Source of the DNA: Minisyncoccota bacterium
GTDB lineage: Bacteria > Patescibacteriota > Minisyncoccia > Phycocordibacterales > PALSA-1337
DNA: 64,000 nucleotides
Direction of reading: 5' to 3'
NCBI GenBank assembly: GCA_041666915.1
Contig: JBAYFZ010000001.1
Coordinates: 201,086-265,085 of the forward strand
This document shows, piece by piece, positions 7,170 through 34,581 of the stretch (its first letter is position 1; every line of letters begins with the position of its first letter). A program made the translations under genes and the position numbers. The notes under the pieces were generated by a model. The model was not told the DNA's origin. It did not search any database and worked only from the letters and a program-made list of their open reading frames with translations.

Positions 7170-7176
7170 GCAAGGA

Positions 7177-7795: not shown

Positions 7796-7829
7796 TCTAT
7801 TCTTATTAAGCCGTTAGGCCTAAAAAGTA

Positions 7830-8030
7830 TTATACGCGCTTTACATCCTGTGCGTTTGGTCCTTTTTGACCGTCAACGACATTGAAAGTAACAGCATCAC
7901 CTACTTTGAGTTCAGCAAAAGTGACACCGGAAAGATCGTTTGAGTGAAAGAAGAGATCTTTTGTCTCACCTTCACGAGCGATGAATCCGAATCCTTTCTC
8001 TGTCAAAGTCTTGATTGTTCCTGATTGCAT
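7830..8030 (-). CDS. Cold-shock protein (CspA family)
   Basis: The 66 aa product contains the RNP-1 motif KGFGFI and FFHSNDL. Confidence 0.9.
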   Translation of the reverse strand: MQSGTIKTLTEKGFGFIAREGETKDLFFHSNDLSGVTFAELKVGDAVTFNVVDGQKGPNAQDVKRV

Positions 8031-8076
8031 GGTTTTTGATTTTAAAATATAAATTGAAGAAGTTCGACTCGTTTCT

Positions 8077-9102: not shown

Positions 9103-9146
9103 TAAAAACCTATGAATTTGATGCATTTCTTCGTTGCTTCGCTCGT

Positions 9147-10625
9147 TTGCTCCATCGCAGTATTAAACTATACAGCTCAGTCGCAAACATCGCTTGCGCC
9201 TCGAACTGCATTCAAATTCATAGGTTTTTGAAAAATAACATGATAAATAACATTCAAATATTTAACACCCTTTCTCGCAAAAAAGAGATTTTCAAGCCTA
9301 TAAACAAAGGCGTAGTCGGAATGTACCACTGTGGACCAACCGTCTATGATCGTATTCACATTGGTAATTTCCGCGCTTTTATAGTTCCAGACATTTTACG
9401 AAGAATGTTTGAATACAACGGTTATGAGGTCAAACAGATCATGAACATTACTGATGTTGGCCATTTGGTCAGTGATGGTGATGAAGGAGAAGATAAAATG
9501 ACAAAAGGTTTGAAGCGTGAAGGCAAACCTATCACCCTAGAAGCAATGTTGGAATTATCTTCTAAATACGCCGACCAGTTTTTGGAAGATTTGAAATCAT
9601 TGAATATAGAGCCGGCTCAAAAATATCCTAGAGCTAGCGAACATATCATTGAAGATATTGAGATAGTCAAACAACTTGAGACAAAAGGTTTCGATTATGC
9701 TCTGGATGATGGTATGTATTTTGATACTGCCAAATTCCCTTCTTATGGCAAGCTCGGAAACATTTCCATTGAAAGCCTCAAGGAAGGTGCTCGCATAACG
9801 ACTAATTCAAACAAACGTAATCCCGCAGATTTCGTCTTATGGAGATTTGACCCGAAGATTGGTTGGGATAGTCCTTGGGGTAAAGGTTTTCCTGGTTGGC
9901 ATATAGAATGTTCGGCAATGTCAGCGAAATATTTGGGACAACCATTTGATATCCATACTGGAGGAATTGATCATATTCCTGTTCACCACAACAATGAAAT
10001 AGCTCAATCTGAAGCGGCTTACGATAAGCCTCTGGCCAATTACTGGATGCACAATGAGTTTCTCATCATTGGCGGAGACAAAATGTCCAAGTCTTTGGGT
10101 AATTATGTAACTTTAGAGACCCTGAAAGAAGAAGCTATCTCACCTCTTGCATATCGTTATTGGTCATTGACTGCACATTATCGTTCACCAGTTAATTTCA
10201 CCTACGAAGCTGTCCGTGGTTCTCAAAATGCCCTCATAAAACTTATGAAGACGATCGTAAGTTATCCAAAAGATGGTCAGATTATTCCTGAATACAAAGA
10301 AAAATTTTTGACTCTTATTAATGATGATTTGAATTTGCCACAAGCTATCGCTCTAGCTTGGAATCTAATCGCTGATTCCAATCAAAAAGATGCTGACAAA
10401 AGAGCAACTTTGATTGATTTTGATAGAGTTTTTGGTCTGAAATTGGATTCTATCCCTGAGACAAAAGAAGAAGTCCCTCCAGAAATACAAGCTTTGGCAG
10501 AAACGCGTGAAGAGGCTCGTAAAGAGAAAGATTGGGTAAAGGCTGATGCCATCCGAAAAGAGATTGAGAATAGGGGCTTTACAGTCAAAGATACGGCTGA
10601 GGGGATTGAAATCGTTAGGATATAG
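9147..10625 (+). CDS. cysS: Cysteinyl-tRNA synthetase; likely start at ATG 9240 (MINNIQIF)
   Basis: MYHCGPTVYDRIHIGNFR contains the HIGH motif, and KMSKSLGN is present. The overall architecture fits CysRS. Confidence 0.9.
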   Translation: MLHRSIKLYSSVANIACASNCIQIHRFLKNNMINNIQIFNTLSRKKEIFKPINKGVVGMYHCGPTVYDRIHIGNFRAFIVPDILRRMFEYNGYEVKQIMNITDVGHLVSDGDEGEDKMTKGLKREGKPITLEAMLELSSKYADQFLEDLKSLNIEPAQKYPRASEHIIEDIEIVKQLETKGFDYALDDGMYFDTAKFPSYGKLGNISIESLKEGARITTNSNKRNPADFVLWRFDPKIGWDSPWGKGFPGWHIECSAMSAKYLGQPFDIHTGGIDHIPVHHNNEIAQSEAAYDKPLANYWMHNEFLIIGGDKMSKSLGNYVTLETLKEEAISPLAYRYWSLTAHYRSPVNFTYEAVRGSQNALIKLMKTIVSYPKDGQIIPEYKEKFLTLINDDLNLPQAIALAWNLIADSNQKDADKRATLIDFDRVFGLKLDSIPETKEEVPPEIQALAETREEARKEKDWVKADAIRKEIENRGFTVKDTAEGIEIVRI

Positions 10626-10632
10626 TCGCTGT

Positions 10633-10747
10633 GTCATTCCCGCGAAGGCGATTTAGCAAAATCGTGTCGAATGGACCGGTGAATCCATGAAGACAAATAA
10701 ATGGATTTTTTGGTAATATCCTGGATTCCCGCCTTCGCGGGAATGAC
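10633..10747. repeat. Inverted-repeat element, copy 2, with a 31-bp nested insertion in the left TIR
   Basis: The left end reads GTCATTCCCGCGAAGGCG-[ATTTAGCAAAATCGTGTCGAATGGACCGGT]-GAATCCATGAAG, and the right TIR is canonical. The element begins 8 bp after the cysS stop. Confidence 0.85.
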
Positions 10748-11382: not shown

Positions 11383-11946
11383 TTAATACTTCCTAACAAC
11401 CCCTTTTACAATAGCGGCAACCTTGAGATCCTGCTCCGGATATATCGGTCTATACTTTTTATTGGCTGGTTCTAGATAGATGACATTTCCCTGTTTACGG
11501 AAATATTTCATAGTCCAACCACCATCAACCTCGGCAATGACAATATCACCTGGTTTTGGTTCTCCTTTGCGCTCTGCTATGACCAAATCGCCCTCTTGGA
11601 TACCAGCATCAATCATAGAGTCGCCTTTTACCTCTAATAAATACGTAGCGGATTTATCTTTTATAAGATAATCCTCTATGTTCATGGTGTCAGTCATCTG
11701 TTCATCCATTGTTGTAGGAAAACCAGCTTCTACCAAACCAAGCAAAGGTATCTCACCGATAAGCCTGTTTGGCACAAGCCTGCCTCTAGAATCTTTGTCC
11801 AAAACACCTTCATCAACTAGTTTATTTATAAGTTTGTAGACAGAATTTTTGGATTTGAAACCAAGTAAAGACATAATCTCGGTATAACTAGGCATACGCT
11901 TTGTTCGTTTATAAAAAGAGATTATTTTGTTTTTATAATTTTCCAT
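11383..11946 (-). CDS. lexA: LexA repressor (S24 peptidase)
   Basis: There is an N-terminal wHTH. The Ala-Gly cleavage site is VEAGFP, the Ser nucleophile is in GDSM, and the catalytic Lys is near the C-terminus. The length is 187 aa. Confidence 0.85.
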   Translation of the reverse strand: MENYKNKIISFYKRTKRMPSYTEIMSLLGFKSKNSVYKLINKLVDEGVLDKDSRGRLVPNRLIGEIPLLGLVEAGFPTTMDEQMTDTMNIEDYLIKDKSATYLLEVKGDSMIDAGIQEGDLVIAERKGEPKPGDIVIAEVDGGWTMKYFRKQGNVIYLEPANKKYRPIYPEQDLKVAAIVKGVVRKY

Positions 11947-17098: not shown

Positions 17099-17809
17099 TC
17101 AATCCACATAAGCCTCTACGATACCTATATGATTTGATAAATGTAATTTGTCGGCCAAATGCGGAAACATGGTCCTATTCGAAAGACCAATACACAAATC
17201 ATCTAATTTATTCAAACCCGGATATGGTAATAGAGTATAAACTAGATCACTACCTTGAATATGTACTCCGTTCACAAAAAGCGGTAACTCATATAGTACA
17301 TAATCTGTTAGTCTATCTAATTCCTCTTGGGACATTTTTGAAATACTCTCTACTCGATCACTTCTTCCAGACACTACGATATCTGTCATAAAATCATGAA
17401 ATTCTTTATTATTTACAAATTCGTCTTTTATCGCCTGTAAATTATATTTGTAAATCTCATTCTGAGTTACATCACCCCATCTCACTACTCGAACTTTATT
17501 CCGATCTTCTGATGATAAAGTGGCAATAATTTCTTGGATCTCTTCATTCTTCTTGTCACCAATCTTTGTAGCTTTCCTCAAAGCACGCTTAGGACTTCGC
17601 TTATCCAATACCTCCAAATTAACTGTATGCAACGCATCAGGTATTACGATTAAAACACCATCTTTGGTATTAGCAATAGCCCATTTAATATACTTTTCAA
17701 TGTTATCTTTAAAAAAATATTTATTTCCAAGACTTATACCTAACCATATATTATGACGTTTATCTCTTATTTCTTCTGGAGTTATATTCAAATAAGTATT
17801 AATCCTCAT
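17099..17809 (-). CDS. tRNA-dependent cyclodipeptide synthase (CDPS, AlbC/YvmC family)
   Basis: The 236 aa product has WLGISLGNKYF (compare AlbC LIGISAGNSYF and YvmC LVGISPFNSRF, which hold the catalytic Ser). It also has YVLYELPLF (compare AlbC YVLAEAPLF, Y178/E182). Size and motif spacing fit a CDPS. Confidence 0.7.
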   Translation of the reverse strand: MRINTYLNITPEEIRDKRHNIWLGISLGNKYFFKDNIEKYIKWAIANTKDGVLIVIPDALHTVNLEVLDKRSPKRALRKATKIGDKKNEEIQEIIATLSSEDRNKVRVVRWGDVTQNEIYKYNLQAIKDEFVNNKEFHDFMTDIVVSGRSDRVESISKMSQEELDRLTDYVLYELPLFVNGVHIQGSDLVYTLLPYPGLNKLDDLCIGLSNRTMFPHLADKLHLSNHIGIVEAYVD

Positions 17810-20716: not shown

Positions 20717-21188
20717 GCGCTCTTTTCATAATCCTCTCTCCAACTTCACCCCAATCAAAATACTTTTTGTAATCAGCTGGATCAATCAAATTGATCTCTG
20801 TAATATCTCCATCTGGATCTGACTCAAATGGTCCATAAGGCTCTACTATACAAACTGAACGAGTCTGTCGCACGATCCTATCCGGTTCATAGATGTCTTG
20901 ATAGCCGATAAACTTTTGACTTAATACTTTCATATTCGTTTCTTCTTTTACCTCTCGCACAACAGCTTCTTCATATGTTTCTCCTTGTTCAATACCTCCT
21001 CCCGGTGGAGTCCAATACCCTTTTTCGGATGCATAGACAACAACGAGTTTGCCCTTATAGAAACAAAAAGCATGGACAGCTTGAAGTATTTTTCCATCGA
21101 GATCCTTCAACGGATTATCTTCACGATAAATGAGGTTGAGTTTTTGGCCAGAACGATTAATGTGAGAGAATTTTATTTCCATATGCAT
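20682..21188 (-). CDS. NUDIX hydrolase
   Basis: The Nudix box is PPGGGIEQGETYEEAVVREVKEETNM. Confidence 0.85.
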   Translation of the reverse strand: MHMEIKFSHINRSGQKLNLIYREDNPLKDLDGKILQAVHAFCFYKGKLVVVYASEKGYWTPPGGGIEQGETYEEAVVREVKEETNMKVLSQKFIGYQDIYEPDRIVRQTRSVCIVEPYGPFESDPDGDITEINLIDPADYKKYFDWGEVGERIMKRALILKRDLSINV

Positions 21189-21505
21189 ATGTAAGATATC
21201 TTGATTTTTAAATGACCGTGGTTATCTACAACTTTTGCTGGCTGTGTGGGACGAAGTTGGAACATGTTTATAGAGGAATGGAGGGGGTTAAGGCAAGGTA
21301 TTCACAACCTACCAGACACAGGTGAAATCATTTGAAGTAAATACTGATTAGTATCCAGAGAAGGATTGTCATTATATTTTTGATTTTGATAAATATTTTC
21401 TAATTACATTAGCTGACCTTCGCGGGTTCGTATATTTCTACACCTTACCCCACAAGACTTTTCCAATGTTTTTTAGTTTATCATTTTGACACTCCTCGGA
21501 ATATT

Positions 21506-22123
21506 TTACGCAAAAAGTTTTGCGGCTACAGAAACAATAAAGGCTAGGAGGCCCAGCACGAACAATGTAAAGCGTTTTTGAGATAACATTTCAATTTGGT
21601 ACTTTACGATTGCATGCTTTTCCTTCAGTGGTCCTGAAAAAGTACTGTCAAGCATTCTTTGAATTTTTAAACCTTGGTTCTCCGCAAAAAGTTTCCTTGG
21701 ATACTCATGCTGGCTTTTATTTTCTTTCTCCCAAAGCAGTCTTTCAGATTCCAATATATCTTTTACATTTCTAGTTTTTTCTTCTAAAGCCTTTTTATTT
21801 TCTTCATTGCTTAGAGTTACTTTTATGAACTGTAATAATGATGGAGTATAAAATTCCTTCATTATCTTATCCAAATCAGATTCAAAATCTGATTTCCATT
21901 TATCTTTCTGACTATCAAAGATACTTTTTCTCAGAGACTCCCTGTACTTAGCGTACAACGTAAGAAGTAGGCACAGAACAAGAAGAACGATTGAGACAAT
22001 AGTAGAAATCTTGAAATAGACAGTTTGCCCCGTCTGAAGGGAATATAAAACCACAAAGGCAGCCAACAGGGCTATCGATGCTGTGATTAAGACATTATCA
22101 ATCTTCTCAATTTGATCTTTCAT
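21506..22123 (-). CDS. Hypothetical membrane protein (N-terminal 2 TM, coiled coil, C-terminal TM)
   Basis: Assessed by hydrophobicity pattern only. Confidence 0.4.
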   Translation of the reverse strand: MKDQIEKIDNVLITASIALLAAFVVLYSLQTGQTVYFKISTIVSIVLLVLCLLLTLYAKYRESLRKSIFDSQKDKWKSDFESDLDKIMKEFYTPSLLQFIKVTLSNEENKKALEEKTRNVKDILESERLLWEKENKSQHEYPRKLFAENQGLKIQRMLDSTFSGPLKEKHAIVKYQIEMLSQKRFTLFVLGLLAFIVSVAAKLFA

Positions 22124-22419
22124 ATTAATTTAATGCTTTCTTCATTATGGGTCTTATAAAAATGCTCTTCGGACTCCGAACCTTTCTGCGAAATTGCTGG
22201 CAGGGCTGGACGATGTTCGAACATTTCGCAATATAAATGAGTATGCAGTCAAGGCAATATACCACTTCTTCAGAAGCGTCTGTGAGTCCCCTTCCTTTAC
22301 AATATCTGATTGGTTTCTGTTATATCATTCGGGAAGTATCGACGATATATGGAATTGAAAAAAGACGGCAAAAATTGCCGGGACAAGCAACTTTTACAGT
22401 GAACCGTTACTTGTTTTGT

Positions 22420-22863
22420 TTAAATTACTTCAACTCTCCTCTTAATTTCATAAACAGTTGCAAACGGAAATATGAATGACCCTTTAATCATTTCTGGCTT
22501 ACCATTAATCTCAATGATTGTTTTACGAGCGTATGGTTTTGAAGAATTCTTTCCGTAAATAGACTCAAACATAAGAGGGTTACTAATTTTGTTATTTATC
22601 TCAAAAGAGTCATAAATCTTTACAGACTTTCCTTTCAAAATTCCCTCTATTACATTCTGCTCCATATGGTCTGGCATATCTGCAAAAGTTATGTTTGACC
22701 AAAACTTCATTTGGAAGTTTAGATTATATCGTCTAGCTAATTTCCTAAGACGTAACGACCTTAGCAATTTAGGCCCCATAACAGGAATTGAAAAGATTGG
22801 AAGTAAAATCAGACCAACAATACAAATAGCACCAAATACTTTTATGTTTTCTAAGGATATCAT
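22420..22863 (-). CDS. Hypothetical membrane-anchored protein (operon member 4)
   Basis: It has an N-terminal TM (FGAICIVGLILLPIFSIPV). It lies 2 nt downstream of the previous gene. Confidence 0.4.
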   Translation of the reverse strand: MISLENIKVFGAICIVGLILLPIFSIPVMGPKLLRSLRLRKLARRYNLNFQMKFWSNITFADMPDHMEQNVIEGILKGKSVKIYDSFEINNKISNPLMFESIYGKNSSKPYARKTIIEINGKPEMIKGSFIFPFATVYEIKRRVEVI

Positions 22864-22864
22864 C

Positions 22865-23143
22865 TTATTCTATATTATTCTTCATCCACTCATTCACTTC
22901 TTTAGATACTCCGTATGTCCCCCAATGTTTAACGATCTGAATGACCAATAATTTATCATTAGCATCAAGGAAGCCTTTTAGCTCATCCCTAATTTCACCA
23001 GCAGTTTTTTTACTTTTTACAAACCATACGGAATATAATGGCTTTGCCCACCATGAATAAGACTTAATCTTTGCTATAAGATTAACATAATCCTGTCGTG
23101 TTTCTGGTTGACCTAGATCATATGAAATAAGGTAGGTATTCAT
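22865..23143 (-). CDS. Small alpha/beta protein with Cas2-like secondary-structure pattern (operon member 3)
   Basis: The 92 aa product has YLISYDL..., LYSVWFVKS and KLLVIQI, resembling the beta1-alpha1-beta2-alpha2-beta3 order of Cas2/VapD-like ferredoxin folds. This is a resemblance only. Confidence 0.3.
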   Translation of the reverse strand: MNTYLISYDLGQPETRQDYVNLIAKIKSYSWWAKPLYSVWFVKSKKTAGEIRDELKGFLDANDKLLVIQIVKHWGTYGVSKEVNEWMKNNIE

Positions 23144-23148
23144 TATTA

Positions 23149-23790
23149 TTATTTTATTTCTGAAGTCACAGATACTGGGTTTGTAGATCCAACATCCCTG
23201 ATTTCTTCGATACTTGCCAACTCCACCCCCGTCTCCGAGTCCGTTTGTGGAATTTTTGATAAAATCAGATTCAACATCTCTTGTTTTTTCACCAGTTCAA
23301 TATTTTGCTTTTGAAGTTTACCATTTTCGTCAATAAGTTTCTCAGCAAATTTCACCACACGTTCACGATTAAAGGCACTCTGATCTCTATCGTTTTTTAT
23401 TTCCGCAAGTTCTTTCTGATGTTCAACTCTTTCGGCATTTAATTTTTCTTGATTTTTTTCATCATCCCATAATTTATTCGCTTTATTCCTAATCATTTCT
23501 TGTATATCATTAAGTCTTCCCCTCGCTCCAAAAAAATTGAATTCTTCAATTGAAAAGAAAAGGTACGTAAATACTTTCCTAAAGAAGATAAGCGCACAAA
23601 GTGTAATCGCTGGCCAAATTGTTGCGTTAATTAAGCTTATTAAATGATCGTATGTTAGACCGAAATGAGCAATCGGGATTAATATTGCACCAACTAAAAC
23701 AACAAAGATAACATATGGTAGTAGATCAACAAATTTAGTGGCGAGATTATTCATTCCGATATGGAAATTTACATAACAAAACCTTACCAT
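23149..23790 (-). CDS. Hypothetical membrane protein with a C-terminal coiled coil (operon member 2)
   Basis: It has 3 N-terminal TM helices followed by a K/E-rich coiled coil. Confidence 0.4.
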   Translation of the reverse strand: MVRFCYVNFHIGMNNLATKFVDLLPYVIFVVLVGAILIPIAHFGLTYDHLISLINATIWPAITLCALIFFRKVFTYLFFSIEEFNFFGARGRLNDIQEMIRNKANKLWDDEKNQEKLNAERVEHQKELAEIKNDRDQSAFNRERVVKFAEKLIDENGKLQKQNIELVKKQEMLNLILSKIPQTDSETGVELASIEEIRDVGSTNPVSVTSEIK

Positions 23791-23890
23791 ATTATTTGCA
23801 GAAAAGGAAGGTTTTTAAGAAAATTTCTTCAACTATTAAAATTCCCAATTATTAGTTACAACTACTCCAAATGTAGCCATCAACGATAAA

Positions 23891-24487
23891 TTAAACAATA
23901 GTCGGCTGACACGTCTTAAATGCGAGGACCTCAGAATTGCGCATCAAAATGGTCTTGTTTGTAGTATACGACAAACCTTTGTTTGGCTGATTCTCAAAAC
24001 CAAGATAGACACAACTTACCTTTCGCGCACGAACTTCTTTGATGGCTGGTTGCAGATCAGAATCGGAACTAGCCAATATAATTTCTTTTACAGATTCGTC
24101 ACAAGCCATTGTTACCATATCAACAGCAATTTTTACATCCACACCCTTTTCTTTAAAAACCAAGACTTTCTTTCCATTCAGACCTTCTTCCATTTGCCCC
24201 CTGACGCGTCCACGTAAAACCACTTCAAAACCCTGATTTTCCAGATGAGTCTTCAACAAACGTTGCTCTTCTATGAGTTGCTGGGATTTTTCCCTGCTTC
24301 CTTCATGTACTTTAATCTGGGCAAAATAGAAGATCTTACGATCAATAACAAAACCTTCCAAGACTTTCACAAATAATCCACGAAAATCAAATTCATGCCA
24401 TACTGGTTTGTTGTTTTTAGTCTCACTGAAAACGGCCCTTATTTTGCCCTTGAGATTCTCCCCATCAATTAACAGGACTGTTTCCAT
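23891..24487 (-). CDS. NYN-domain (LabA-like) putative RNase (operon member 1)
   Basis: LIDGENL, KGVDVKIAVDMV and ILASSDSDLQPAIK match NYN/LabA catalytic motifs. Confidence 0.65.
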   Translation of the reverse strand: METVLLIDGENLKGKIRAVFSETKNNKPVWHEFDFRGLFVKVLEGFVIDRKIFYFAQIKVHEGSREKSQQLIEEQRLLKTHLENQGFEVVLRGRVRGQMEEGLNGKKVLVFKEKGVDVKIAVDMVTMACDESVKEIILASSDSDLQPAIKEVRARKVSCVYLGFENQPNKGLSYTTNKTILMRNSEVLAFKTCQPTIV

Positions 24488-24675
24488 GGGGGTATTCTAC
24501 CATATCAATAACGCAAAACCCCAGCGGACCTTGCGGCTGGCTGGGGCGTGTATATCATTATAGTATACCCAAGTATATCTAAAGTCAATACCCATTACAT
24601 TATGGATTTACCACCCAGATTTGCGCCTTTTTTGAAAGAGAGTAGGATTCGGGGTGATTAATTAAACCGCAAACC

Positions 24676-26073
24676 ATGCCCACATATTTTGTTTACTGCC
24701 GCAAATCTACCGAAGCCGAGGATAGGCAGATTTTATCAATTGATTCTCAGATCAATGAACTCAAACAGCATGCCATAAAGAAAGGAATCAAAATTGTAGC
24801 TGTTCTGACCGAGGCCAAATCAGCCAAGGCACCGGGACGTCCGGTGTTTAATTCTCTAATGGAACGGTTGTACCGTGGTGAAGCTGATGGAATCCTGTGC
24901 TGGAAATTGGACCGTCTTGCTCGTAACCCTGTTGATGGTGGTGCTATCATCTGGGCCATGAAGGAACATGGGGTAAAAATTATTACCCCTTTACAGACAT
25001 ACGGACAATCCGAAGACAATGTCGTCTGGATGTACCTGGAATTTGGCATGGCACAGAAATACGTTGATGACTTGAGCCGAACCGTAAAACGGGGTTTGCG
25101 GGCGAAAGCGGAATCTGGTTGGTTTCCAAGCGTTACCCCGCCAGGATACATGAATTGTGAGAACGACGAGGGACGCAATGTTATCGCCAAGGATCCCAAA
25201 CGATTTGATATTATCCGAAAGTGCTGGGACTTAATGCTTACTGGAAAGTACACACCTCCAGAAATCAGAGAAATTGCCAATACCGCATGGAGGTATACAA
25301 CAAATCATGGAAATCCTCTGGGGCGTAGCACCATTTACAACATCTTTTCAAATCCCTTTTACCATGGCACTTATGAATATCCAAGAGGAAGTGATAACTG
25401 GCACACTGGTCGGCATACCCCTATGATAACAGAGGAAGAATTTGATACGGTCCAACACATTTTATCACGATCTCGCCATATGCCACGAAACCGCAAGGTG
25501 TTTGCCTTCACTGGAATCATCCGGTGCGGTGGATGCCAAGGCGCTGTGACAGCAGAGGAAAAGCATCAGATTATATGCCCAGTCTGTAAATTGAAGTTCG
25601 CTTACCGCTCCAAAGAGCAGTGTCCACGATGCCAGACAGCTATCGCAAACATGGTAAAACCAGTCCACCTCACTTACACCTACTACCACTGTACCAAATC
25701 TTCCAATCCCGCCTGTACCGAGCTCGGAGTTGAGCGAAAAGAATTGGAACGTCAGATCATTCGCCACCTTGAAGGTGTGCATCTTCCCGATTTTCACAAC
25801 CACTGGGTTAACACCTGTTTTGGACGTTTGAGCACAAAACCGGATACCACCAGCATGTTGGCAGTCATTACCCAATCATTCCCCAATAGCAGTCCAGATG
25901 TTCAACGAGAAATTGTTACATCAATATTTTCAGCAATAGTTCTGAAGGATAGGGAGATTGGCGTTTCGCTCAAAATTCCCTTTTCATTCCCTAACAAGGC
26001 TGAGGTGCCCACCCCGCTTGACCAAAAATCCTTTACTCAAAAGACGTTGCAGGAGCACATGTCCAGATCGTGA
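24676..26073 (+). mobile_element. Large serine recombinase (phage-type serine integrase/transposase)
   Basis: The N-terminal resolvase domain is YFVYCRKSTEAEDRQ...LDRLARN. A recombinase domain and a Cys-rich zinc ribbon (CGGCQG...CPVCK...CPRC) follow. Local GC is about 47-50% against about 33-35% around it. Confidence 0.8.
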
Positions 26074-26352
26074 CGATTGGTAACCTAAAGCCGACGAAAG
26101 TCCCCTTACAGAAGGAAAACTACCAGTGGCAGCATATTGCTGACGTAAAACTTGAAGAGCTTCCTTTTCTGGTTCGGTGAGTAAATCTTGAACTGCTTTT
26201 TCCTCTTGATTTTTCACACTAGCAGCAATGTGGCAGAGACCAAGGAACCGTACACCCATGTCATGAATTTCTTCATCAGTAGATTCTATTCCTGATTTTC
26301 GTTGGATTTTACGCAGATGCTTAAACGTGCGAGTGGAAAGTATTGGGATCAT
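25984..26352 (-). CDS. Small wHTH protein with a LexA-N-terminal-like DNA-binding domain (possible excisionase/regulator); start uncertain, 3' end overlaps the recombinase gene
   Basis: LTEPEKEALQVLRQQYAATGSFPSVRGLSSALGYQSSRSGHVLLQRLLSKGFL resembles the LexA_DNA_bind fold. Confidence 0.35.
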   Translation of the reverse strand: MIPILSTRTFKHLRKIQRKSGIESTDEEIHDMGVRFLGLCHIAASVKNQEEKAVQDLLTEPEKEALQVLRQQYAATGSFPSVRGLSSALGYQSSRSGHVLLQRLLSKGFLVKRGGHLSLVRE

Positions 26353-26421
26353 TTTCCCAATTTAGCAATATCCTGGCATCATAAACAAGCCTGGACGCCG
26401 ATGGTGTTTACTTTTGGACCC

Positions 26422-26468
26422 CTGTTTACTTGCCTGTACCGTTTATTACCTAGGATCAAAGTAAACAG
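26422..26468. other. Candidate serine-integrase att site: 9-bp perfect inverted repeat CTGTTTACT ... AGTAAACAG with a 29-bp spacer; a third direct TGTTTACTT copy lies at 26405
   Basis: Read directly. The 47-bp size and symmetric arms fit serine-integrase att sites. It lies between the recombinase islet and tRNA-Gln. Confidence 0.3.
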
Positions 26469-26536
26469 ACATGAAAAAAATGGCTTAACAAAAGCCCAGT
26501 TACGAACATCAAATATCCAAGAACTGTATCAGTGTG

Positions 26537-26607
26537 CTGGGGGACAGGGACTCGAACCCCGATAATCAGGACCAAAACCTGATGTCCTACCATTAGACGA
26601 TCCCCCA
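26537..26607 (-). tRNA. tRNA-Gln (anticodon TTG)
   Basis: The cloverleaf was folded by hand: acceptor UGGGGGA/UCCCCCA, D stem GUCU/GGAC, anticodon stem UCAGG/CCUGA with loop UUUUGGU, and T arm CGGGG-UUCGAGU-CCCUG. CCA is not encoded. Confidence 0.8.
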
Positions 26608-26724
26608 ATATTCTGTTATACCTTTGATCCAGCCTGTAATCTTACGATTCAAATCTGAACTTGTTCTTATATTAACCCGTAAAAGGCCGATATACAAGGT
26701 TACATTTAAAACTGAATACTTCTA

Positions 26725-28312: not shown

Positions 28313-29305
28313 ATGAAAAAATTAATTGACACGATGATTACTATATTCATCGTAACCATCCTTGCTTCCCTTGCGCTAGACGTAAGAGGAGCTGGTTCAA
28401 CATCCAGTATCGTCATAGATTCATCTGGGTTACCCAACAAACTGCCAATGGGTGACGAGTCAACATTCAAAAGTTATATCGTAGGTAAAAACAACCTCGG
28501 AATGAACGTCTGGGTTAGTTTGGGATTCCAAAATGATAATGATAATTGGACACCTTCCAGCTGTGGAAAATTTTCATATGGATACGATTCCTATGATGAT
28601 TTTCTAAATGATGTAACCAATGCTGCAGTGAAAGTACTTGAAAGATACTACACAAATGGTATAGCCTATCCTCCTGGGAGAAAGTTATACGCAATGCTTG
28701 AAGTTACATACTTCAACGACAGACCCGATACCCCATCATATCCAATAGGTCTATGGGTATACAGAGAGGTTGGTACTTTGGAAATGGTTACTCCTATGAC
28801 ATTCAAGGAAGTATTCTCTCTTCCATCAACTGCTACAACAAATCTAGTTGAAAAAGCAGTGATTGCAATACCCGCTCTTGAATATCTAAACATCACCGTA
28901 GAGATGCCAACCGGTGTAGGGACATTCAGTTGGTCCAATTCTGTCGTCAAAACTTCGGCATTGTGGCCAAGTAACCCTTCAAACCAAACAAGGCCTGGTT
29001 ATCTATCTATGGACAAATGGCTTTGTGTTGGCAATTATCCAGCAAGGATCACGATCAGGACAACCAACGGGTCGCTAGCGGTATACACTCATTATGGTGA
29101 CAGGATAAAACCGCCAAAAATGAGCATGCCTGACAGCAAAAATCTTGCAATCAATACCCCCAGAGGTTCAAATACTAAAATCTTTTCATCAACCGATTTG
29201 AAGAACTGGACATTGTTCGGTACTACAAATTCAGGTGGAGTAAATAACATTACACTACCAGTAAATGGCAACGGAAAGACGTTTTATAAGGCTTCTTGCG
29301 AGTAA
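28313..29305 (+). CDS. Secreted hypothetical protein (330 aa)
   Basis: The signal peptide is MKKLIDTMITIFIVTILASLALDVRGAG. No family was recognised. Confidence 0.5.
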   Translation: MKKLIDTMITIFIVTILASLALDVRGAGSTSSIVIDSSGLPNKLPMGDESTFKSYIVGKNNLGMNVWVSLGFQNDNDNWTPSSCGKFSYGYDSYDDFLNDVTNAAVKVLERYYTNGIAYPPGRKLYAMLEVTYFNDRPDTPSYPIGLWVYREVGTLEMVTPMTFKEVFSLPSTATTNLVEKAVIAIPALEYLNITVEMPTGVGTFSWSNSVVKTSALWPSNPSNQTRPGYLSMDKWLCVGNYPARITIRTTNGSLAVYTHYGDRIKPPKMSMPDSKNLAINTPRGSNTKIFSSTDLKNWTLFGTTNSGGVNNITLPVNGNGKTFYKASCE

Positions 29306-29337
29306 GATTGATTGTGAGCAAAATGTATGGAATACAC

Positions 29338-29375
29338 AAACCCTCAACACGATGAATGTTGAGGGTCTTTTGTTA
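29338..29375. terminator. Hairpin AAACCCTCAACA-loop-TGTTGAGGGTCTTTTGTT between convergent genes
   Basis: Read directly. It belongs to the same stem family as the terminators at 18837, 61680 and 63358. Confidence 0.5.
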
Positions 29376-29381
29376 AAGACA

Positions 29382-32300
29382 TCAGAACGTTGTTTCTGCT
29401 TCACCTCCGAAAGAACTGAAAACATTCAAAATAGCTGTTGCAGTTTTTTCTGGATAGGTAACTTGATCGCCACCAGAAGTACAAGTAATCTTGAAAAGAT
29501 AAGTACCCCTAACCGAAGTATTCATACTACTTACATTAGAATTCGCATCTACATTATCATCTGTTAAAACACTACCCCATCCATCTGGATCATTAGAAAT
29601 TGAACGTGAACAATTGTAACCCTCTGTATTAGTAGGACTCCAAGCCGGTAAAGTATTTTGCCATGCCAAACCAAAGCTATATCCTTTCTTTACAGTATAT
29701 TCAGTCCTTTTGGAACTATCGGCAGTGCTACCATTACTACCAATCCAGAGATTGAGTACTGGTTCTACGACTGGTGTAGATATTCTTACATCTTGCCATG
29801 AACTACAGTTATTGGTTTCATCTGACTCTGTGACCGTGCCGGCAAAAGAAAAGTCTTGACTATCAGCACAGACTTTTACAGACTTGACACCATCTGAAGT
29901 AAAAGTATACCGGCCTAAGATAGGTGCATTTTCACCACTTCCCAAACCATCAGGAGAGATGGCTACCATAGGAATAACGTCCGCTACAGTACCACCACCA
30001 CTTGTCTGCTCTGCTACTTGGAAGAAGTTCCTAAATGAAGAATCTACACTGACACCACCAATATTTGAAATATTTGCATAAAAATAAATCAGCGAATCTT
30101 TAGCCCCACCAGAAGAAGTTAGCATGACCGCAGTAAGATCTGGTAATGAAGTTACAGGCGCAGTCACCTTCACTGAAGTCGTAGCATATTCAGTGGTACT
30201 CCAATACGTATCACTTTGTGGATAACCGGTAATTTGGGTGGTCTGTCTAATCGCAACATCTGCTATATAATCCCCTGCCGTAGGATAATTACAATAATAA
30301 ATATTTGACAAAGAACTGACACTCCATACAGGATCAGTATTATGGCATTTGAATGCGTAATACATATTGTTTACACCCCAAGATGAAGCTGTAAGTTTAA
30401 CATTAGTCATACCACCAACCTCTCCAGTGGAAGGCGTGGCAGACAAACTAGGAATAGCTATGTGAACATCGGTACTTGCATTAGCAGTACCCCCCGGTCC
30501 TATACAGGTCACACTAAATGAACTATCTGTATACATAGCACCAGTACCAGCAAAAATAGTATTATCATAATTATACGGTGACATAGTACCCGTTGGAATA
30601 AAATATCTGTCACATGATGTTGTATTTTGGGAAGAACCAAAGAAAAATGTTCCTTGACCCTTCAAAACATAACTAGGGTTGACTGTCATCTCAACCGTAG
30701 GAGGTGGGTTGGCCGTAACAGTTACAAAAGCGCGGTCTGAAGAAGGCCAAGGAACAGTCCATGTACAAGTCATATCAAAAGTAGTTGTTACATTCAGAAT
30801 ACTGGTCTGTAAACCGGTAGTATTGACAAGAGGTACTTCTGTACCTTTTGTATAAGGTGCAGGCCAATTATCACCTGCAAAACATTTGTCTGGATTTTGA
30901 CTAGTTGACCAAAACAGATTGGTGTAATTACCAGTGTTAACTGAACTAGGTGTAGCTGTTATGATAACATTTCCATTTGGAGGACTATTGACCAAAGTCA
31001 CCGTCACACTATCGCTTGCAGATCCTTCAGGACCAGTACAAGTTATTTCATAAGTCTTTGTAGCTGTTATAGGACCAGTACTTACACCAACATAATTTGA
31101 TGTACCAGTATAACTTGCTGGCCAAGAAGCTCCTGTAACACATGATGTGGTATTTTCAGATACCCAAGAAAGTTGGGATGAAGAATTGTAGGTCACCGAC
31201 AAAGGGTTTGCACTTAGATCAACAGTCGGGGTACCTGTAGGCGGAGGACTGGCTTGAGAAGAACCGACCGTGATGACTGTCACAGGCGTTGCAATTATTC
31301 CCGATTGCGTAACTTTGGCAGAAGCTGTATATGTACCATTTGTTGTATAAGTACAAGAAAAAGAATTTGAAGATTGTGAAAGACTCCACATATCAATATC
31401 CTTACATTTAAACTGATAAGTGATAGCACCGATAGCAGTTCCACCTGTACGTGTAGCGGTGAGAGTATTATCCAAAGTCGCACTACCACTAGAAGGACTT
31501 GCAACAAGAGACGCCGTGAGAGCTGGAGTATTAACATCAAAAGGAATAGCGTGTGTACCAAACTGATGTGGTAACCACTGCCACCCTACTCCATCTACAT
31601 AATCAAAAGTATTACCCCAATCTTGACCATTCAAAATATGAGAACCTGCAGTGACACCGTACGTATCATAAAAAATTAAATTACCTACACAAGAATAAAC
31701 AGCCTGAACCACACTTTCTTGAGGTCCACCATCAACATCCGCAGAAATACTTAGGGCTGTATTACTATTGAAATTACAACCACCACTAACATCAGATACG
31801 GATCCAGAAGCGATTATTGATTCTCCAAAATCATAAGTGGATTTATTGAGGCCTAGATTGTAAACATAAGTATAACCAGCAACGTTATAGATCTTTGTAT
31901 CTGCTTTAACCATATCCACACCACCAAACATATACAAACCAAAAACCAAAAATAATACAAATATACTTTTCAACTTTTTATTTATATGTACTCGCAACAT
32001 GATGACTATCATTATCAATATAAATCCAACAATTATTGTGATAGTTTCAGCTACAGGCCAACTGGCTTTTACTTCCACAGGCGTTGTTACTTTTGCTTCT
32101 TTCGTATCCAAGATTTGTGACTTGCCACCTGATTTGGCTTCAAAAGATATATTAGCCTTAGGATCATTACAACCTGTTACTATTGGTACAAGAGCATTGA
32201 TAACCAAATTGTTTACACCCATCATCTGTTGACCACAGACAACTCCTTCTCGGTTAGTTACAGTGACTTTGATTACTTGATTTTCAAGACTTGTACCAGC

Positions 32301-33257
32301 ACCCAAACGTGAATCTGGAAAAGTATCAGCCGATGGTGTCAAGAAAATTTGTAATTTTGCAGTATCTCCTGTTTTATATGAAGATTTGTCAAAAACGATA
32401 TTTTGAATAGTACCACTTGCACCACGTAGAACGTAATGGAATCTGGCTGTATTGGAAGTAGTGGTACTACTGGTCAATGAAAAAAGTAGATCGTATGATT
32501 GTGGTTGCAGAGCTTTTGGTAATTCAAATGACAATGTAGAGGTACCAGCTTTTACTGTAACTGCCGTGACTACAGGTTCAGTCTGATTTACTTTATTACC
32601 ATAAATAGTTCTGTTATAGGTTTCAAAAACTGGCTTGAGAATAGTAAAATCACTAAATATTTTACAGTTAGCTATCAATACCTCATTTTGATTTATATCT
32701 ACACCCTGATTTGGTTTATACCCTTTTTGTGGTTTTTCGCCTTTTACACTTAGACTACATGTGTCTGATATGATCTCAATTCTTGGTAGCTTGTTACTTT
32801 GCAAAGTGACATCTCCTAGACTTGCCAAAGCCAAAGGAAGACCTCTATCATTGTTACTTTTAATCCAGAGTTGATATATACCACCAGAAAGTGCTACTGG
32901 TGATGTATATATAATGTTTTTCTGAATTGTTTGATTTGGACCCAACTCTATAATTTCGTCGTATACCTTTTCATCTGCGGTACTTCCAAACGGAGGTTTA
33001 GTCAGTACTACAGAATATTTGATACCTGATTGAACTCCTTCGCGATTGGAGAGATCAAAAGAGAGCCTAAGGGTATTTTCTCTTTGAGAGACTATTCTGG
33101 CATTATAGATATTGACAGTAGCAACTGTAGCGCTGATCGCTTTTGAAGAAGTGGAGGTGTTGGACGGTATACTTTGCGCAGAGACGTCACTTCCAAAGAA
33201 CAATACACCTAATGTAAAGAATGCTAACGAGATATTCTTTTTCATTTCTATATTCAT
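29382..33257 (-). CDS. Giant Ser/Thr-rich surface protein (1291 aa) with Ig/PKD-like repeats, an internal TM plus signal-peptide-like segment, and a conserved C-terminal domain
   Basis: The N-terminal signal peptide is MKKNISLAFFTLGVLFFGSDVSAQS. The internal segment is ITIIVGFILIMIVIM-LRVHINKKLKS-IFVLFLVFGLYMFGGVDMVKA. It has repeated Y(Q/A)FKC...YTASAKV modules. Its C-terminal 120 aa are homologous to the C-terminus of the next gene. Confidence 0.7.
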   Translation of the reverse strand: MNIEMKKNISLAFFTLGVLFFGSDVSAQSIPSNTSTSSKAISATVATVNIYNARIVSQRENTLRLSFDLSNREGVQSGIKYSVVLTKPPFGSTADEKVYDEIIELGPNQTIQKNIIYTSPVALSGGIYQLWIKSNNDRGLPLALASLGDVTLQSNKLPRIEIISDTCSLSVKGEKPQKGYKPNQGVDINQNEVLIANCKIFSDFTILKPVFETYNRTIYGNKVNQTEPVVTAVTVKAGTSTLSFELPKALQPQSYDLLFSLTSSTTTSNTARFHYVLRGASGTIQNIVFDKSSYKTGDTAKLQIFLTPSADTFPDSRLGAGTSLENQVIKVTVTNREGVVCGQQMMGVNNLVINALVPIVTGCNDPKANISFEAKSGGKSQILDTKEAKVTTPVEVKASWPVAETITIIVGFILIMIVIMLRVHINKKLKSIFVLFLVFGLYMFGGVDMVKADTKIYNVAGYTYVYNLGLNKSTYDFGESIIASGSVSDVSGGCNFNSNTALSISADVDGGPQESVVQAVYSCVGNLIFYDTYGVTAGSHILNGQDWGNTFDYVDGVGWQWLPHQFGTHAIPFDVNTPALTASLVASPSSGSATLDNTLTATRTGGTAIGAITYQFKCKDIDMWSLSQSSNSFSCTYTTNGTYTASAKVTQSGIIATPVTVITVGSSQASPPPTGTPTVDLSANPLSVTYNSSSQLSWVSENTTSCVTGASWPASYTGTSNYVGVSTGPITATKTYEITCTGPEGSASDSVTVTLVNSPPNGNVIITATPSSVNTGNYTNLFWSTSQNPDKCFAGDNWPAPYTKGTEVPLVNTTGLQTSILNVTTTFDMTCTWTVPWPSSDRAFVTVTANPPPTVEMTVNPSYVLKGQGTFFFGSSQNTTSCDRYFIPTGTMSPYNYDNTIFAGTGAMYTDSSFSVTCIGPGGTANASTDVHIAIPSLSATPSTGEVGGMTNVKLTASSWGVNNMYYAFKCHNTDPVWSVSSLSNIYYCNYPTAGDYIADVAIRQTTQITGYPQSDTYWSTTEYATTSVKVTAPVTSLPDLTAVMLTSSGGAKDSLIYFYANISNIGGVSVDSSFRNFFQVAEQTSGGGTVADVIPMVAISPDGLGSGENAPILGRYTFTSDGVKSVKVCADSQDFSFAGTVTESDETNNCSSWQDVRISTPVVEPVLNLWIGSNGSTADSSKRTEYTVKKGYSFGLAWQNTLPAWSPTNTEGYNCSRSISNDPDGWGSVLTDDNVDANSNVSSMNTSVRGTYLFKITCTSGGDQVTYPEKTATAILNVFSSFGGEAETTF

Positions 33258-33300
33258 ATATTTTACCTCGATTCAACTCCAATTGTGAACAATGAAATAA

Positions 33301-34581
33301 TCATCTCTCCCCGCCACCACCCGAGGAACTGATCACTTCCAACACAGCTGAAGCTGTTTGTGTATCATCGGGACTTCCTCCTTTATTTTCACATAGTATC
33401 TTAAAGACGTATGTACCAGTATCTGTGGTATTCATTGGAGAGAAAGTTCTACCATCAGAATTGACATTACCATCCCACACAGAAGACCAATTAGAACCAC
33501 TAGCAGTTGGTATCAAAGTATTACACTGGTAACCTTTACCAGTATTTTGATTGAATTTTGGATTTAATGCATTACCCCATTTCAAACCAAAGGTATAACC
33601 TTTCTTAACTGTATATGAATTTTTATTGGCACTATTACCGGTACCGCCAATCCAGAGATTGAGTAAAGAATCCGTAGTGGTAATCTCTTTTGTAGGTGTT
33701 GACGTTACACCCTCTCGTACAACCTTTGCTGAAGCTGTGTAATTACCAATATCTAGACCGGAATAATCACAATCTGCATAAACTTTGAAAGTATCTGTGG
33801 TAGTAATAGGGGTACTCCATGAAGAATCTGTTTCCTTACATTTGAATTGATAAGTGATGGGACCTACAGCCGTACCACCAGAAACACTAACAATGAATGT
33901 TCTACGGAGACTCCTCAAGCCTATCTGATAATCAACAGTCATGACCGTACTCAAAGTTGGAGTTGAGACTGGATTTGGAGTAAGTGGCAACGATGAATAA
34001 TCTGGATTGAATTGCAACCAACCGATAACATTTCCTCCCCAAGCATATCCGCGTAACATCTTGGTTGAAGCACCACCAACAATAACATCGTCCATATGTA
34101 CGCCCGATGATCCTCCGGCAGTAGAAGGATGATTTGCTCCTGCCAACTCTATCCAACCATCCCAACCATCAGTCCTACTGACCATACTGCTACAATCACC
34201 ATTTGCTGTACCTGCACAAGCACGTGCCCAACCTCTCACTTCTCCAGTCGTTGAATCTATATTTGCAGGAACTCCAGAAGCACCATTTGAAGGATAGCCT
34301 GATAAACCACCAAATTTTATCCAACCAATGTTAGACGACCAAGCGTAACCCGTGATATCACCACTCACCGAACCAACAACTACGGGAGTATTGTTCGGAG
34401 CAAGATCCACCCAACCGATATTTGACGACCAAGCCCAATTTCCTAAACTAACAGAATCTGCCCTAACAGATGTAGCAGGTTTTGTGATAATAGTAAGAAT
34501 CGTAACCGTAATAAACAAAATCAATACTGTCGTAATGGTAGCTAAGACATTTCTCCTCATTATTGAAGTGTTATTAGGCAT
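33301..34581 (-). CDS. Surface protein (426 aa) with 3x (Y/W)AW(S/G)xN(I/V)GW repeats, a PKD-like module and the shared C-terminal domain
   Basis: The TM/signal is MRRNVLATITTVLILFITVTILTIIT. The three repeats are WAWSSNIGWVDL, YAWSSNIGWIKF and YAWGGNVIGWLQF. The C-terminus NLWIGGTGN...GTYVFKILC aligns with NLWIGSNGS...GTYLFKITC of the giant protein. Confidence 0.65.
   Translation of the reverse strand: MPNNTSIMRRNVLATITTVLILFITVTILTIITKPATSVRADSVSLGNWAWSSNIGWVDLAPNNTPVVVGSVSGDITGYAWSSNIGWIKFGGLSGYPSNGASGVPANIDSTTGEVRGWARACAGTANGDCSSMVSRTDGWDGWIELAGANHPSTAGGSSGVHMDDVIVGGASTKMLRGYAWGGNVIGWLQFNPDYSSLPLTPNPVSTPTLSTVMTVDYQIGLRSLRRTFIVSVSGGTAVGPITYQFKCKETDSSWSTPITTTDTFKVYADCDYSGLDIGNYTASAKVVREGVTSTPTKEITTTDSLLNLWIGGTGNSANKNSYTVKKGYTFGLKWGNALNPKFNQNTGKGYQCNTLIPTASGSNWSSVWDGNVNSDGRTFSPMNTTDTGTYVFKILCENKGGSPDDTQTASAVLEVISSSGGGGER

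Follow-up and report, generated by a model that had tools for sequence, protein, structure and literature searches.

A probable serine-integrase cassette at the 3′ end of tRNA-Gln(UUG) in a Candidatus Paceibacterota chromosome

The stretch of 64,000 nucleotides analysed here, referred to as the window, comes from a metagenome-assembled genome of Candidatus Paceibacterota (450-kb contig JBAYFZ010000001.1, positions 201,086 to 265,085 of the forward strand). At 22195-26540 it contains genes for a large serine recombinase (integrase), a small winged-helix protein and four cargo proteins, and this region adjoins the 3′ end of a tRNA-Gln(UUG) gene. It is most probably a single site-specific integrative cassette inserted at this 3′ end, with a length of 4,340 bp when measured core to core, from the left to the right copy of the hexamer TGCTGG. 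In order from left to right, the region shows a relic of an integrase tail (the P′ arm), a terminator-like hairpin, the four cargo genes, a promoter-like and hairpin block, a conserved block before the integrase ATG, the integrase gene, the winged-helix gene, three TGTTTAC boxes, a GGCTYAAC motif, the core-proximal sequence CTGTATCAGTG and the core, followed by the tRNA gene. A previous sequence-only reading had described a GC-rich islet at 24490-26620, which leaves out the four cargo genes and underestimates the 4.34-kb element by half; the annotation should be corrected to 22195-26540.

Integrase, winged-helix protein and conserved boxes

The integrase gene (24676-26073, plus strand) is intact and encodes 465 amino acids (aa), as identified by Pfam, by structure matches and by a structure model. 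The Resolvase domain (PF00239) is found with E 9e-22 at residues 5-148 and the Recombinase domain (PF07508) with E 5e-8, bearing out two of the three domains named in the sequence-only reading; the third, a zinc ribbon, is seen in the model, its Pfam match (Zn_ribbon_recom, PF13408) being sub-threshold with 20.5 bits at a cut-off of 25.3. Matches by sequence to solved structures include the SPbeta and TP901-1 integrases and other serine recombinases. The phage integrases are just 21-25% identical to the enzyme, and phage records match at no more than 25% identity. The motifs R9-K10-S11 and D79-R80-L81-x-R83 and eight cysteines are invariant among 25 homologues. An AlphaFold2 model made with 25 homologues shows the catalytic domain, DNA-binding domain 1 (DBD1) and the zinc ribbon, with β-ribbon strands at residues 282-339, helices at 354-417 and closing strands at 418-432. 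A short integrase lacking the coiled coil was considered in view of an 85-residue gap relative to long integrases, and was rejected because the model has approximately 64 helical residues at 354-417. These helices lie where the coiled coil is expected, so the modelled enzyme looks complete; the overall predicted local distance difference test (pLDDT) value is 72, which makes the coiled-coil geometry tentative. Collectively, the protein has the parts of a large serine recombinase, namely a catalytic domain with the nucleophilic serine, and DBD1 and a zinc ribbon with a coiled-coil insertion. Residues 441-465, encoded where the integrase gene overlaps its neighbour, are poorly conserved and modelled with low confidence.

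By the defining scores, the integrase and its partner are not members of the XisF, Ccr or LexA families. The best NCBIfam match of the integrase is XisF (NF041201, E = 4e-25), which reaches 88.7 bits against a cut-off of 375; with this score and with no interrupted gene at the locus, the enzyme does not qualify as an XisF-type excision recombinase. The Ccr models likewise score 69.6 bits for CcrB (cut-off 900), 53.5 for CcrA (700) and 43.2 for CcrC (900). Upstream of the gene, about 10-35 nt before the ATG, a block beginning with GTAGGAT (24642-24668, plus strand; TCATATCA in relatives) is kept in more than 15 relatives, and the sequence farther upstream is unrelated. This block is likely to be the integrase promoter.

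The partner gene (25984-26352, minus strand) is convergent with the integrase gene, the two overlapping by 90 bp at their 3′ ends, and encodes a 122-aa protein with three N-terminal helices and a C-terminal LexA-type winged-helix domain (residues 58-120; Pfam LexA_DNA_bind, PF01726, E 9e-8). Its AlphaFold2 model has a pLDDT of 84.5, and the top nine Foldseek matches in the PDB are all LexA structures, including the LexA-DNA complex 3jso with a root-mean-square deviation of 1.6 Å over 66 residues. An overlapping opposite-strand gene with a LexA-like DNA-binding domain, as had been read from the letters, is thus confirmed. The protein is not a full LexA repressor: TIGR00498 matches the domain only (26.9 bits, cut-off 111), and no match to the S24 peptidase (self-cleavage) domain was found in the 122 residues. 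A host LexA-like gene with a helix-turn-helix and an S24 peptidase (E 4e-27) lies 13 kb away at 11383-11946 and is distinct from the peptidase-less protein of the element. The winged-helix family is small: among 1.84 billion, 155 cluster representatives match at E ≤ 1e-3. Every relative that has an integrase at least 55% identical and available downstream sequence carries an intact convergent homologue; the protein is equal in length to its homologues, and the YxSSRSGH segment, presumed to be the recognition helix, is invariant. A homology of the winged-helix protein to the extra C-terminal part of long integrases was looked for, and none was found.

Upstream of the winged-helix gene are three TGTTTAC boxes, two of them direct (GTGTTTACTTT at 26404-26414 and CTGTTTACTT at 26422-26431) and one inverted (AAGTAAACAG at 26459-26468). 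Three TGTTTAC/GTAAACA heptamers thus fall within 65 bp, against 0.013 expected from base composition. In an alignment of 13 loci whose integrases are just 56-78% identical, the boxes TGTTTACTTT, TGTTTAC and GTAAACA are kept in 13/13, 12/13 and 13/13 loci, respectively, and the flanking columns vary; the boxes also stand beside a winged-helix homologue of 27% identity in locus L101 (related loci are given by L numbers where they need to be told apart). The boxes lie 70-130 bp from the crossover core, and the distance from the inverted box to the core is 68-74 bp in ten of the 13 loci and 85-86 bp in L001 and L002, loci with an unrecombined core included. Large serine integrases need att sites of 40-50 bp (PMC12286644), so the boxes fall outside them. 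The sequence-only reading had correctly recognised the inverted repeat, which is slightly longer than described, and the third direct copy. Its proposal of the 47-bp repeat as the att site does not hold, as the crossover core lies at the tRNA 3′ end and the spacing between the two is kept in relatives.

The roughly constant spacing between boxes and core would suit accessory or operator sites in the P arm, and the boxes, which are present in attP and attR only, are probably binding sites of the winged-helix protein. A plausible promoter of the winged-helix gene, TTGTTT-17-CTAAAT preceded by TG (26387-26359), can be read just downstream of the boxes. The protein would bind the boxes between its own start codon and the crossover, and in this position it could autoregulate the module, act as a DNA-bound directionality (excision) factor, or do both; it is thus a candidate directionality factor. 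A fourth TGTTTAC, at integrase codons 4-7 (24690), is unconserved in homologues and was attributed to chance. Similarly, a plus-strand open reading frame (ORF) across the P arm (26302-26565, 87 aa) was rejected, as relatives have stop codons there; its apparent conservation, VFTF...LFT...KVN, arises because the TGTTTAC boxes are read in one frame.

The search of IMG/VR viral contigs found neither a relative of the integrase nor the reconstructed attP. Only one viral contig (L105) matches the three-box pattern; neither an integrase nor a winged-helix gene is present on it, and the match was set aside as chance. With no IMG/VR relative of the integrase and no phage-type families among the cargo, the element does not have the features of a prophage or phage satellite.

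Junctions at the tRNA-Gln gene and at the integrase tail

The tRNA-Gln(UUG) gene (26536-26607, minus strand, anticodon ttg) adjoins the element as the sequence-only reading had stated; it was located by ARAGORN, scores 60.4 bits with Rfam and is intact. It would be the integration target and provides the B′ arm. The attR core TGCTGG (26535-26540) overlaps the last bases of the tRNA gene and forms, together with the core-proximal P arm CTGTATCAGTG, the segment 26524-26540, which was located by homology breaks from both sides. From the side of the empty site, related loci were reached through homologues of the neighbouring DnaX (77-82% identical), whose contigs were then examined. All six related Paceibacteria loci keep the order S11 peptidase, Dus, DnaX and tRNA-Gln(ttg). 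Four of them, from three related genomes, have an empty site (L095, L096, L099 and L100), where the tRNA gene is followed by ordinary genes and no recombinase, and in the last three the tRNA-Gln is base for base the same as that of the window. The comparison with related genomes proposed earlier was thus productive. The empty-site loci are similar to the window up to ...CCCCCAGCA (window base 26535) and no further. From the element side, the closest relatives, L018/L019, show DNA similarity of 72.6% over 1,885 bp, from the integrase ATG to 26543, where it is lost, and the 13-locus alignment breaks directly after ...AGTGCTGG, at about 26541-26543. The breaks seen from the two sides place the right junction within TGCTGG at 26535-26540.

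The same tRNA-Gln(ttg) is occupied in a related Paceibacterium by a different serine recombinase of 551 aa (L097 8853-10553, L098 5692-8540), which is about 51% identical in part, has about 60 nt of its ORF within the tRNA 3′ end and is directly followed by a tyrosine integrase. This occupancy by a different integrase indicates that this tRNA-Gln is an insertion hotspot. In L097, the 551-aa recombinase had not been called as a gene. Between the boxes and the core of the window lies the conserved GGCTYAAC motif (26474-26496, minus strand), which in the window forms a 5-bp stem followed by T7 and is terminator-like, just downstream of the tRNA gene. A conserved terminator hairpin was rejected, since the stem is not consistently maintained among relatives; it is a possibility for the window only, and the conserved element may be a sequence motif instead of a hairpin.

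No long direct repeat of the tRNA-Gln 3′ end is present within the window, and the left end was therefore found through homology of the P′ arm, the clue coming from a comparison of the regions upstream of the integrase across relatives. Window positions 22195-22364 are 78% identical over 170 bp to L027 658-827, the 3′ coding end of a longer serine recombinase (...LGDLEEVRTLRNNNEYLVKAIYHFFRSVCMSPSFTLSDWFMLYHSGSMDDWKN, then stop). Accordingly, the P′ arm (22194-22358, plus strand) is an orphan but intact 54-codon integrase C-terminal tail (LLAGLDDVRTFRNINEYAVKAIYHFFRSVCESPSFTISDWFLLYHSGSIDDIWN, then stop), recovered by tblastn with E = 5e-25 and with no integrase body upstream. The ratio of nonsynonymous to synonymous substitution rates (dN/dS) of the tail is 0.21-0.30 relative to the tails of L027 and L002. 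At its start lies the attL core TGCTGG (22195-22200), the same hexamer as at the right junction, which separates the host arm B from the element arm P′.

The same type of sequence follows the core in eight relatives that have no tRNA gene there (L002, L018, L020, L023, L025, L026, L030 and L032), with the pattern GCTGGAGAC.TAGACGATGTTCGAACC...ATATAC...TTC. In these relatives, it stands directly after the right-hand arm, the two giving an unrecombined attP. When the two arms of the window are joined, they read ...CAGTGTGCTGG followed by CAGGGCTGGACGATGTTCGAAC, as compared with ...CAGAGTGCTGG followed by AGGGCTGGACGAAGTTAGAAC in the attP-type locus L018. The conserved right flank of the L018 type was also considered as a tRNA, transfer-messenger RNA or other known RNA; ARAGORN and Rfam found none, and the flank is integrase-tail coding sequence. 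On the host side, ATTGCTGG of attL matches the empty site ATTGCTGGGGG of L099. Two independent assemblies from other samples (L103 and L104) agree with the window at 100% identity across the attL junction, indicating that it is not an assembly artefact, and both flanks of the element are syntenic with relatives, with DnaX on the right and NUDIX, HAD and DEAD-box helicase genes on the left.

The L104 contig, which corresponds to window 21063-22223, ends 23 bp inside the element, in the tail just past the attL core. Such an end can reflect mixed integrated and excised populations, and may be taken as a hint. A stem-loop on the host side, TTCGGAGTCCGAA followed by a T-run (22168-22180, minus strand), was found by the terminator scan outside the element, 15 bp from the attL core. 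Its fold is weak (z = 0.3), and it is probably the original terminator of tRNA-Gln, parted from the gene by the insertion.

The two hybrid att sites are recognised by homology of their arms, the P arm at the tRNA and the P′ arm at 22.2 kb, which share TGCTGG. There is exactly one P arm and one P′ arm, in correct order and orientation and with the same core. We infer from this arrangement that a circular form carried an attP of the form ...CTGTATCAGTG-TGCTGG-CAGGGCTGGACGATGTTCGAAC..., and that the chromosome had an attB of the form ...CTGCGAAAT-TGCTGG-GGGACAGGGACTCGAACC..., spanning the 3′ end of tRNA-Gln(UUG) and the first downstream bases. The cassette's own 465-aa recombinase would have joined the two sites by a two-base crossover somewhere within the shared TGCTGG, with the tRNA gene staying intact. 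In excision, the unit released would be 22201-26540, and the resulting junctions would read AAGAACTGTATCAGTGTGCTGGCAGGGCTGGACGATGTTCGAACATTTCG for attP and CCGAACCTTTCTGCGAAATTGCTGGGGGACAGGGACTCGAACCCCGATAA for attB. The element disrupts no gene because the tRNA gene is intact. Furthermore, the integrase, the winged-helix ORF and both junction arms are intact, and the cassette may be active at present. The earlier suggestion of an integrative element or its remnant can therefore be upheld in its first part, a horizontally acquired serine-recombinase element at tRNA-Gln, and a remnant is not favoured.

Some observations weigh against this interpretation. Neither a circular junction nor an empty site of the same strain was seen, and the strain's only other assemblies also carry the element: an exact look-up of the 205-aa protein encoded next to the left end returned two other contigs, which are identical to the window and have the element present. 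The strain is contained in the samples ENA ERZ27249449, SRR6484324 and JGI 3300037810. The empty sites belong to different species, as judged from DnaX identities of 77-82%, and their sequence downstream of the tRNA cannot be aligned with the left flank of the window beyond a few bases. The shared core is just 6 bp, and hence the left junction depends on homology of the P′ arm and not on a long direct repeat. The cargo is host-like in GC content (guanine plus cytosine), unlike the integrase module, which makes the cassette a mosaic whose tail could stem from an earlier, separate event. With regard to the winged-helix protein as a directionality factor, most such factors characterised for large serine integrases contact the integrase and not DNA (PMC12286644).

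Cargo genes, base composition and alternative readings

Four cargo genes are encoded on the minus strand between the P′ arm and the integrase module. The gene at 23891-24487 encodes a 198-aa protein with an NYN domain, a predicted RNase (Pfam NYN, E = 4e-15; PADLOC HEC-09, 2e-9, and NYN, 1e-7). The 213-aa product of 23149-23790 has a hydrophobic N-terminus and a charge-rich, probably helical C-terminal part, and its only match is a weak one to a JetA region in PADLOC (E = 4e-5). The next gene (22865-23143) encodes a 92-aa Cas2-like protein, matched by PADLOC Cas2b with E = 2e-5 and, below the cut-off, by Pfam CRISPR_Cas2 with E = 7e-3. The last one (22420-22863), taken from the ORF list, encodes 147 aa with no Pfam, PADLOC or NCBIfam match. 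The terminator scan places a terminator-like hairpin, CGGCAATTTTTGCCG with a T-run (22366-22380, minus strand), at the end of this operon. The four genes are probably a defence or toxin-type module.

Between the cargo and the integrase module, folding and the terminator scan reveal a minus-strand block (24504-24590) with a promoter-like TTGACT-17-TACTAT (24588-24560), a GC-rich hairpin (24519-24546) and a U-run. The hairpin, CCCCAGC...GCTGGGG, has a folding energy of -22.7 kcal/mol on the minus strand (z = -2.2) and no Rfam match was found for the block. The block is 88-93% identical solely to L003/L038 (L003 600-720), which are otherwise divergent cassettes with the block in a different position relative to the cargo; there, a toxin-antitoxin pair is present between the block and the integrase, about 870-925 bp upstream of which the block lies. 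In the window, the block is internal to the element; it might mark the boundary of a cargo module, insulate against antisense transcription or encode a small RNA. The hairpin reported at about 24512-24540 by the sequence-only reading thus exists, at 24519-24546, and is not the end of the element, since the left junction is 2.3 kb farther left. The L003 contig is binned as Geobacter and looks like a cassette of this family; the approximately 640 bp to the left of its block (L003 1-640) have no ORF of at least 40 aa on either strand, which is unusual for compact genomes.

The 1.9 kb at 24641-26540 have a GC content of 45.1%, compared with 37.5 ± 1.9% for the rest of the window (maximum 41.7%), corresponding to z of about 4; the mean of the window is 37.8%. 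The GC content at third codon positions of the recombinase, 0.47, is the highest of 26 genes checked, and the neighbouring dnaX is already at 42.5% GC. Windowed analysis thus sustained the difference seen by eye, but not its values, which had been given as 47-50% over 33-35%. Within the element, GC content is 32-39.5% in the cargo, 41% in the tail and 45% in the integrase module, and the cassette looks mosaic, with conserved ends and exchangeable cargo between them.

This uneven composition bears on an alternative that we consider improbable, namely a composite of two events, in which the 22.2-kb tail, perhaps with some cargo, was left by an older long-integrase element and the short integrase module arrived later, so that the whole unit would not be mobile as one piece any more. 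It would account for the GC values just given, for the internal hairpin block, which looks like a module boundary, and for the tandem arrays and partly decayed modules that are common in relatives (L002, L101). However, no remnant of an integrase body is present at 21.2-24.6 kb, and tblastn finds one integrase only. The single P arm and single P′ arm, with proper order, orientation and the same core, fit one unit, and relatives share the layout of tail, small cargo, short integrase, winged-helix gene and P arm.

A minimal islet of 2 kb comprising only the integrase and winged-helix genes, with its left end at the hairpin at about 24.52 kb and an att site in the form of the 47-bp repeat (26422-26468), is largely refuted. 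In its favour, the GC rise is limited to about 24.6-26.5 kb, the start codon of the integrase is where DNA similarity to relatives sets in, and the hairpin (24540-24546) and the tRNA end (26536-26542) share the heptamer GCTGGGG. A 7-bp match is nevertheless weak evidence, and the repeat is found 68-86 bp away from the core in 13 loci, unrecombined ones among them. Homology to the empty sites and to relatives breaks at 26535-26543 and not at the repeat, the hairpin block is common just to L003/L038 and lies there beyond a toxin-antitoxin pair, and a bona fide P′ arm exists at 22.2 kb. A fixed, domesticated or decaying recombinase, either in a relic island by chance or with a host function such as an XisF/SpoIVCA-like regulated rearrangement, is equally hard to credit: there is no direct sign of excision, XisF is the best NCBIfam match albeit far below the cut-off, and all three assemblies of the strain carry the element, but no gene is interrupted, the tRNA and both ORFs and junction arms are intact, and the sites in related genomes are empty or differently occupied.

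Integrase family, tandem arrays and known systems

The integrase of the single integrative cassette favoured here has relatives that number in the thousands. Of 51 related loci retrieved with sufficient sequence beyond the integrase, 34 show a tRNA gene downstream of it, on the opposite strand in 34/34, with the tRNA 3′ end a median 525 bp past residue 378. Ten tRNA species are used, which are Ser, Gly, Asn, Gln, Leu, Asp, Thr, Tyr, Trp and Val. The ORF of long integrases runs into the tRNA gene (L008, L098), which places the core within the integrase's own 3′ end. In L008, a tail-type attL (VVDDIRTY...) is found about 9.8 kb from its tRNA-Ser. This locus has two candidate left ends about 190 bp apart, an 18-bp exact copy of the tRNA-Ser 3′ end at 168-185 and the tail-type ATGCGGAGCGTAGTAGACGACATTAGAAC (VVDDIRTY) at about 355-400; the 18-bp copy may be the scar of an earlier event.

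The winged-helix gene is confined to the subclade whose integrases share at least 55% identity with that of the window, where it is always convergent and overlapping. In this subclade, the right junction is a tRNA gene in the window, L001 and L021/22, and an integrase tail in L002, L018/19, L020, L023, L025, L026, L030, L032 and L101. In L002, L018 and L020, a long integrase that ends in an in-frame tail of its own is found 2-10 kb upstream, so that a unit of tail, cargo, short integrase, winged-helix gene and P arm has a core on either side. The region upstream of the short integrase also contains an integrase tail or 3′ end in L026, L027, L028, L031 and L035. Cargo in the tail-type loci consists of AbiEii, a TIR protein or DUF4258/DUF2283 pairs.

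Two loci, L002 with four tails and L101 with three, represent tandem arrays. In L002 (1-13500), from a complete Verrucomicrobiae chromosome, the tails at 1599, 3316, 11856 and 13258 form one array, and two of its cassettes (about 1.4 and 1.7 kb) have no recombinase and share a common 385-bp right end, 86% identical, with the GGCTTAAC motif and the TGCTGG core; these two are candidates for movement in trans. In L101 (reverse complement, 880-10650, on a 1.2-Mb contig), three consecutive modules each end in a tail (1452, 6027 and 10542), and one integrase is split over three ORFs. In the leftmost module, the sole winged-helix gene is that of the 27%-identical homologue, with TGTTTAC boxes at a different spacing. 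Tail copies show dN/dS values of 0.2-0.3 between loci, orphaned ones too, which fits the idea that tails often serve as in-frame replacements of the C-terminus of a resident integrase.

These features suggest that cassettes in relatives would sit inside the 3′ end of long integrase genes, replacing the tail in frame, and that the tRNA 3′ end resembles this target. Such in-frame replacement is a model drawn from about ten loci, to which duplication followed by divergence is the alternative. It is conceivable, though short of probable, that the cassettes are part of an accretion system like that of integrons or of the staphylococcal cassette chromosome (SCC), in which the core in the 3′ end of a resident long integrase is the preferred target and tRNA 3′ ends are look-alikes. 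In such a system, each cassette would bring an in-frame spare tail, keeping the resident integrase intact, and repeated insertion would line up small defence or toxin cassettes in tandem arrays, the integrase-less ones presumably moved in trans; the winged-helix protein on its boxes would then switch the direction of a large serine integrase while bound to DNA.

The single cassette at tRNA-Gln can be compared with several known systems. SCC elements form tandem arrays with short repeated cores, some of them recombinase-less, and are rich in defence genes (PMC11470126). SCC and SCCmec resemble the present element as small to medium cassettes with large serine recombinases, inserted at the 3′ end of a conserved gene without its inactivation, and relatives of the element likewise show arrays, short repeated cores, recombinase-less cassettes and defence cargo. 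However, rlmH (orfX) is not the target here, insertion being at the 3′ end of a tRNA gene or of a paralogous integrase gene, the integrase is not a Ccr orthologue, and a LexA-type DNA-binding protein with conserved putative binding boxes belongs to the module. With 3-10 kb, the cassettes are also far smaller than SCC, and they are found in Patescibacteria, Verrucomicrobia and further environmental lineages. The serine integrases of streptococcal integrative and conjugative elements (ICEs) that target rumA have the core inside the integrase 3′ end, and integration swaps the 3′ parts of integrase and target (PMC4701971). Long integrases related to the window's enzyme do likewise with tRNA genes (L008, L098), whereas the streptococcal target is protein-coding and the elements are large conjugative ICEs. 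The short integrase of the window has its own stop and does not cross the core, and only the orphan attL tail recalls this arrangement.

With genomic islands of tyrosine integrases, the element shares an integrase beside a tRNA 3′ end, the intact tRNA, a hotspot for multiple elements and tandem accretion, and differs in its serine recombinase chemistry and short core, 6 bp being shared and not a long repeat of the tRNA end. The phiRv1 element of Mycobacterium tuberculosis, studied by Bibb and Hatfull, is reportedly a small non-phage-like element whose large serine integrase is assisted by a DNA-binding Xis at core-flanking sites in attP and attR. The present element is likewise small and has a large serine integrase, with a small putative DNA-binding helper whose proposed sites lie near the core; its helper is a LexA-type winged helix with a helical N-terminal part, not an excisionase fold, and its target is a tRNA gene and not a repetitive element. 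On present sequence evidence, it is a serine-integrase cassette that would work like SCC elements and tRNA-targeting islands.

Large serine integrases are usually described as hitting protein-coding genes. Here, a whole clade of serine integrases, mostly from Patescibacteria, keeps a fixed spacing to tRNA 3′ ends, with at least ten different tRNA species used. tRNA genes are the classic targets of tyrosine integrases, and the specificity of serine integrases is poorly known (PMC4701971). The literature searched yielded no account of this integrase clade or of serine integrases that target tRNA genes in Patescibacteria, and in it the clade-wide tRNA targeting, the LexA-type partner with its boxes, the spare tail and the arrays of mini-cassettes appear to be undescribed; the individual ingredients have precedents. 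The very small, defence-like cassettes occur in reduced genomes thought to be poor in mobile elements, and could be a route for the exchange of defence or toxin genes. In addition, compact pairs of integrase and att site with universally conserved tRNA landing sites could help to engineer uncultivated or hard-to-transform lineages, and the conserved LexA-type binder with three invariant boxes by the core offers a testable candidate for a DNA-bound directionality or regulatory factor.

Elsewhere in the window, the region between dnaX and dus (28313-34581) encodes proteins of 330 aa (plus strand), 1,291 aa (minus strand, with a weak CARDB match) and 426 aa (minus strand). As dus and dnaX are adjacent or nearly so in 6/6 related loci, this block of approximately 6 kb looks like a second lineage-specific insertion, with large surface-type proteins. 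A cyclodipeptide synthase homologue (Pfam CDPS, E 1e-20) is encoded at 17099-17809, beside a META-domain protein, in this reduced genome.

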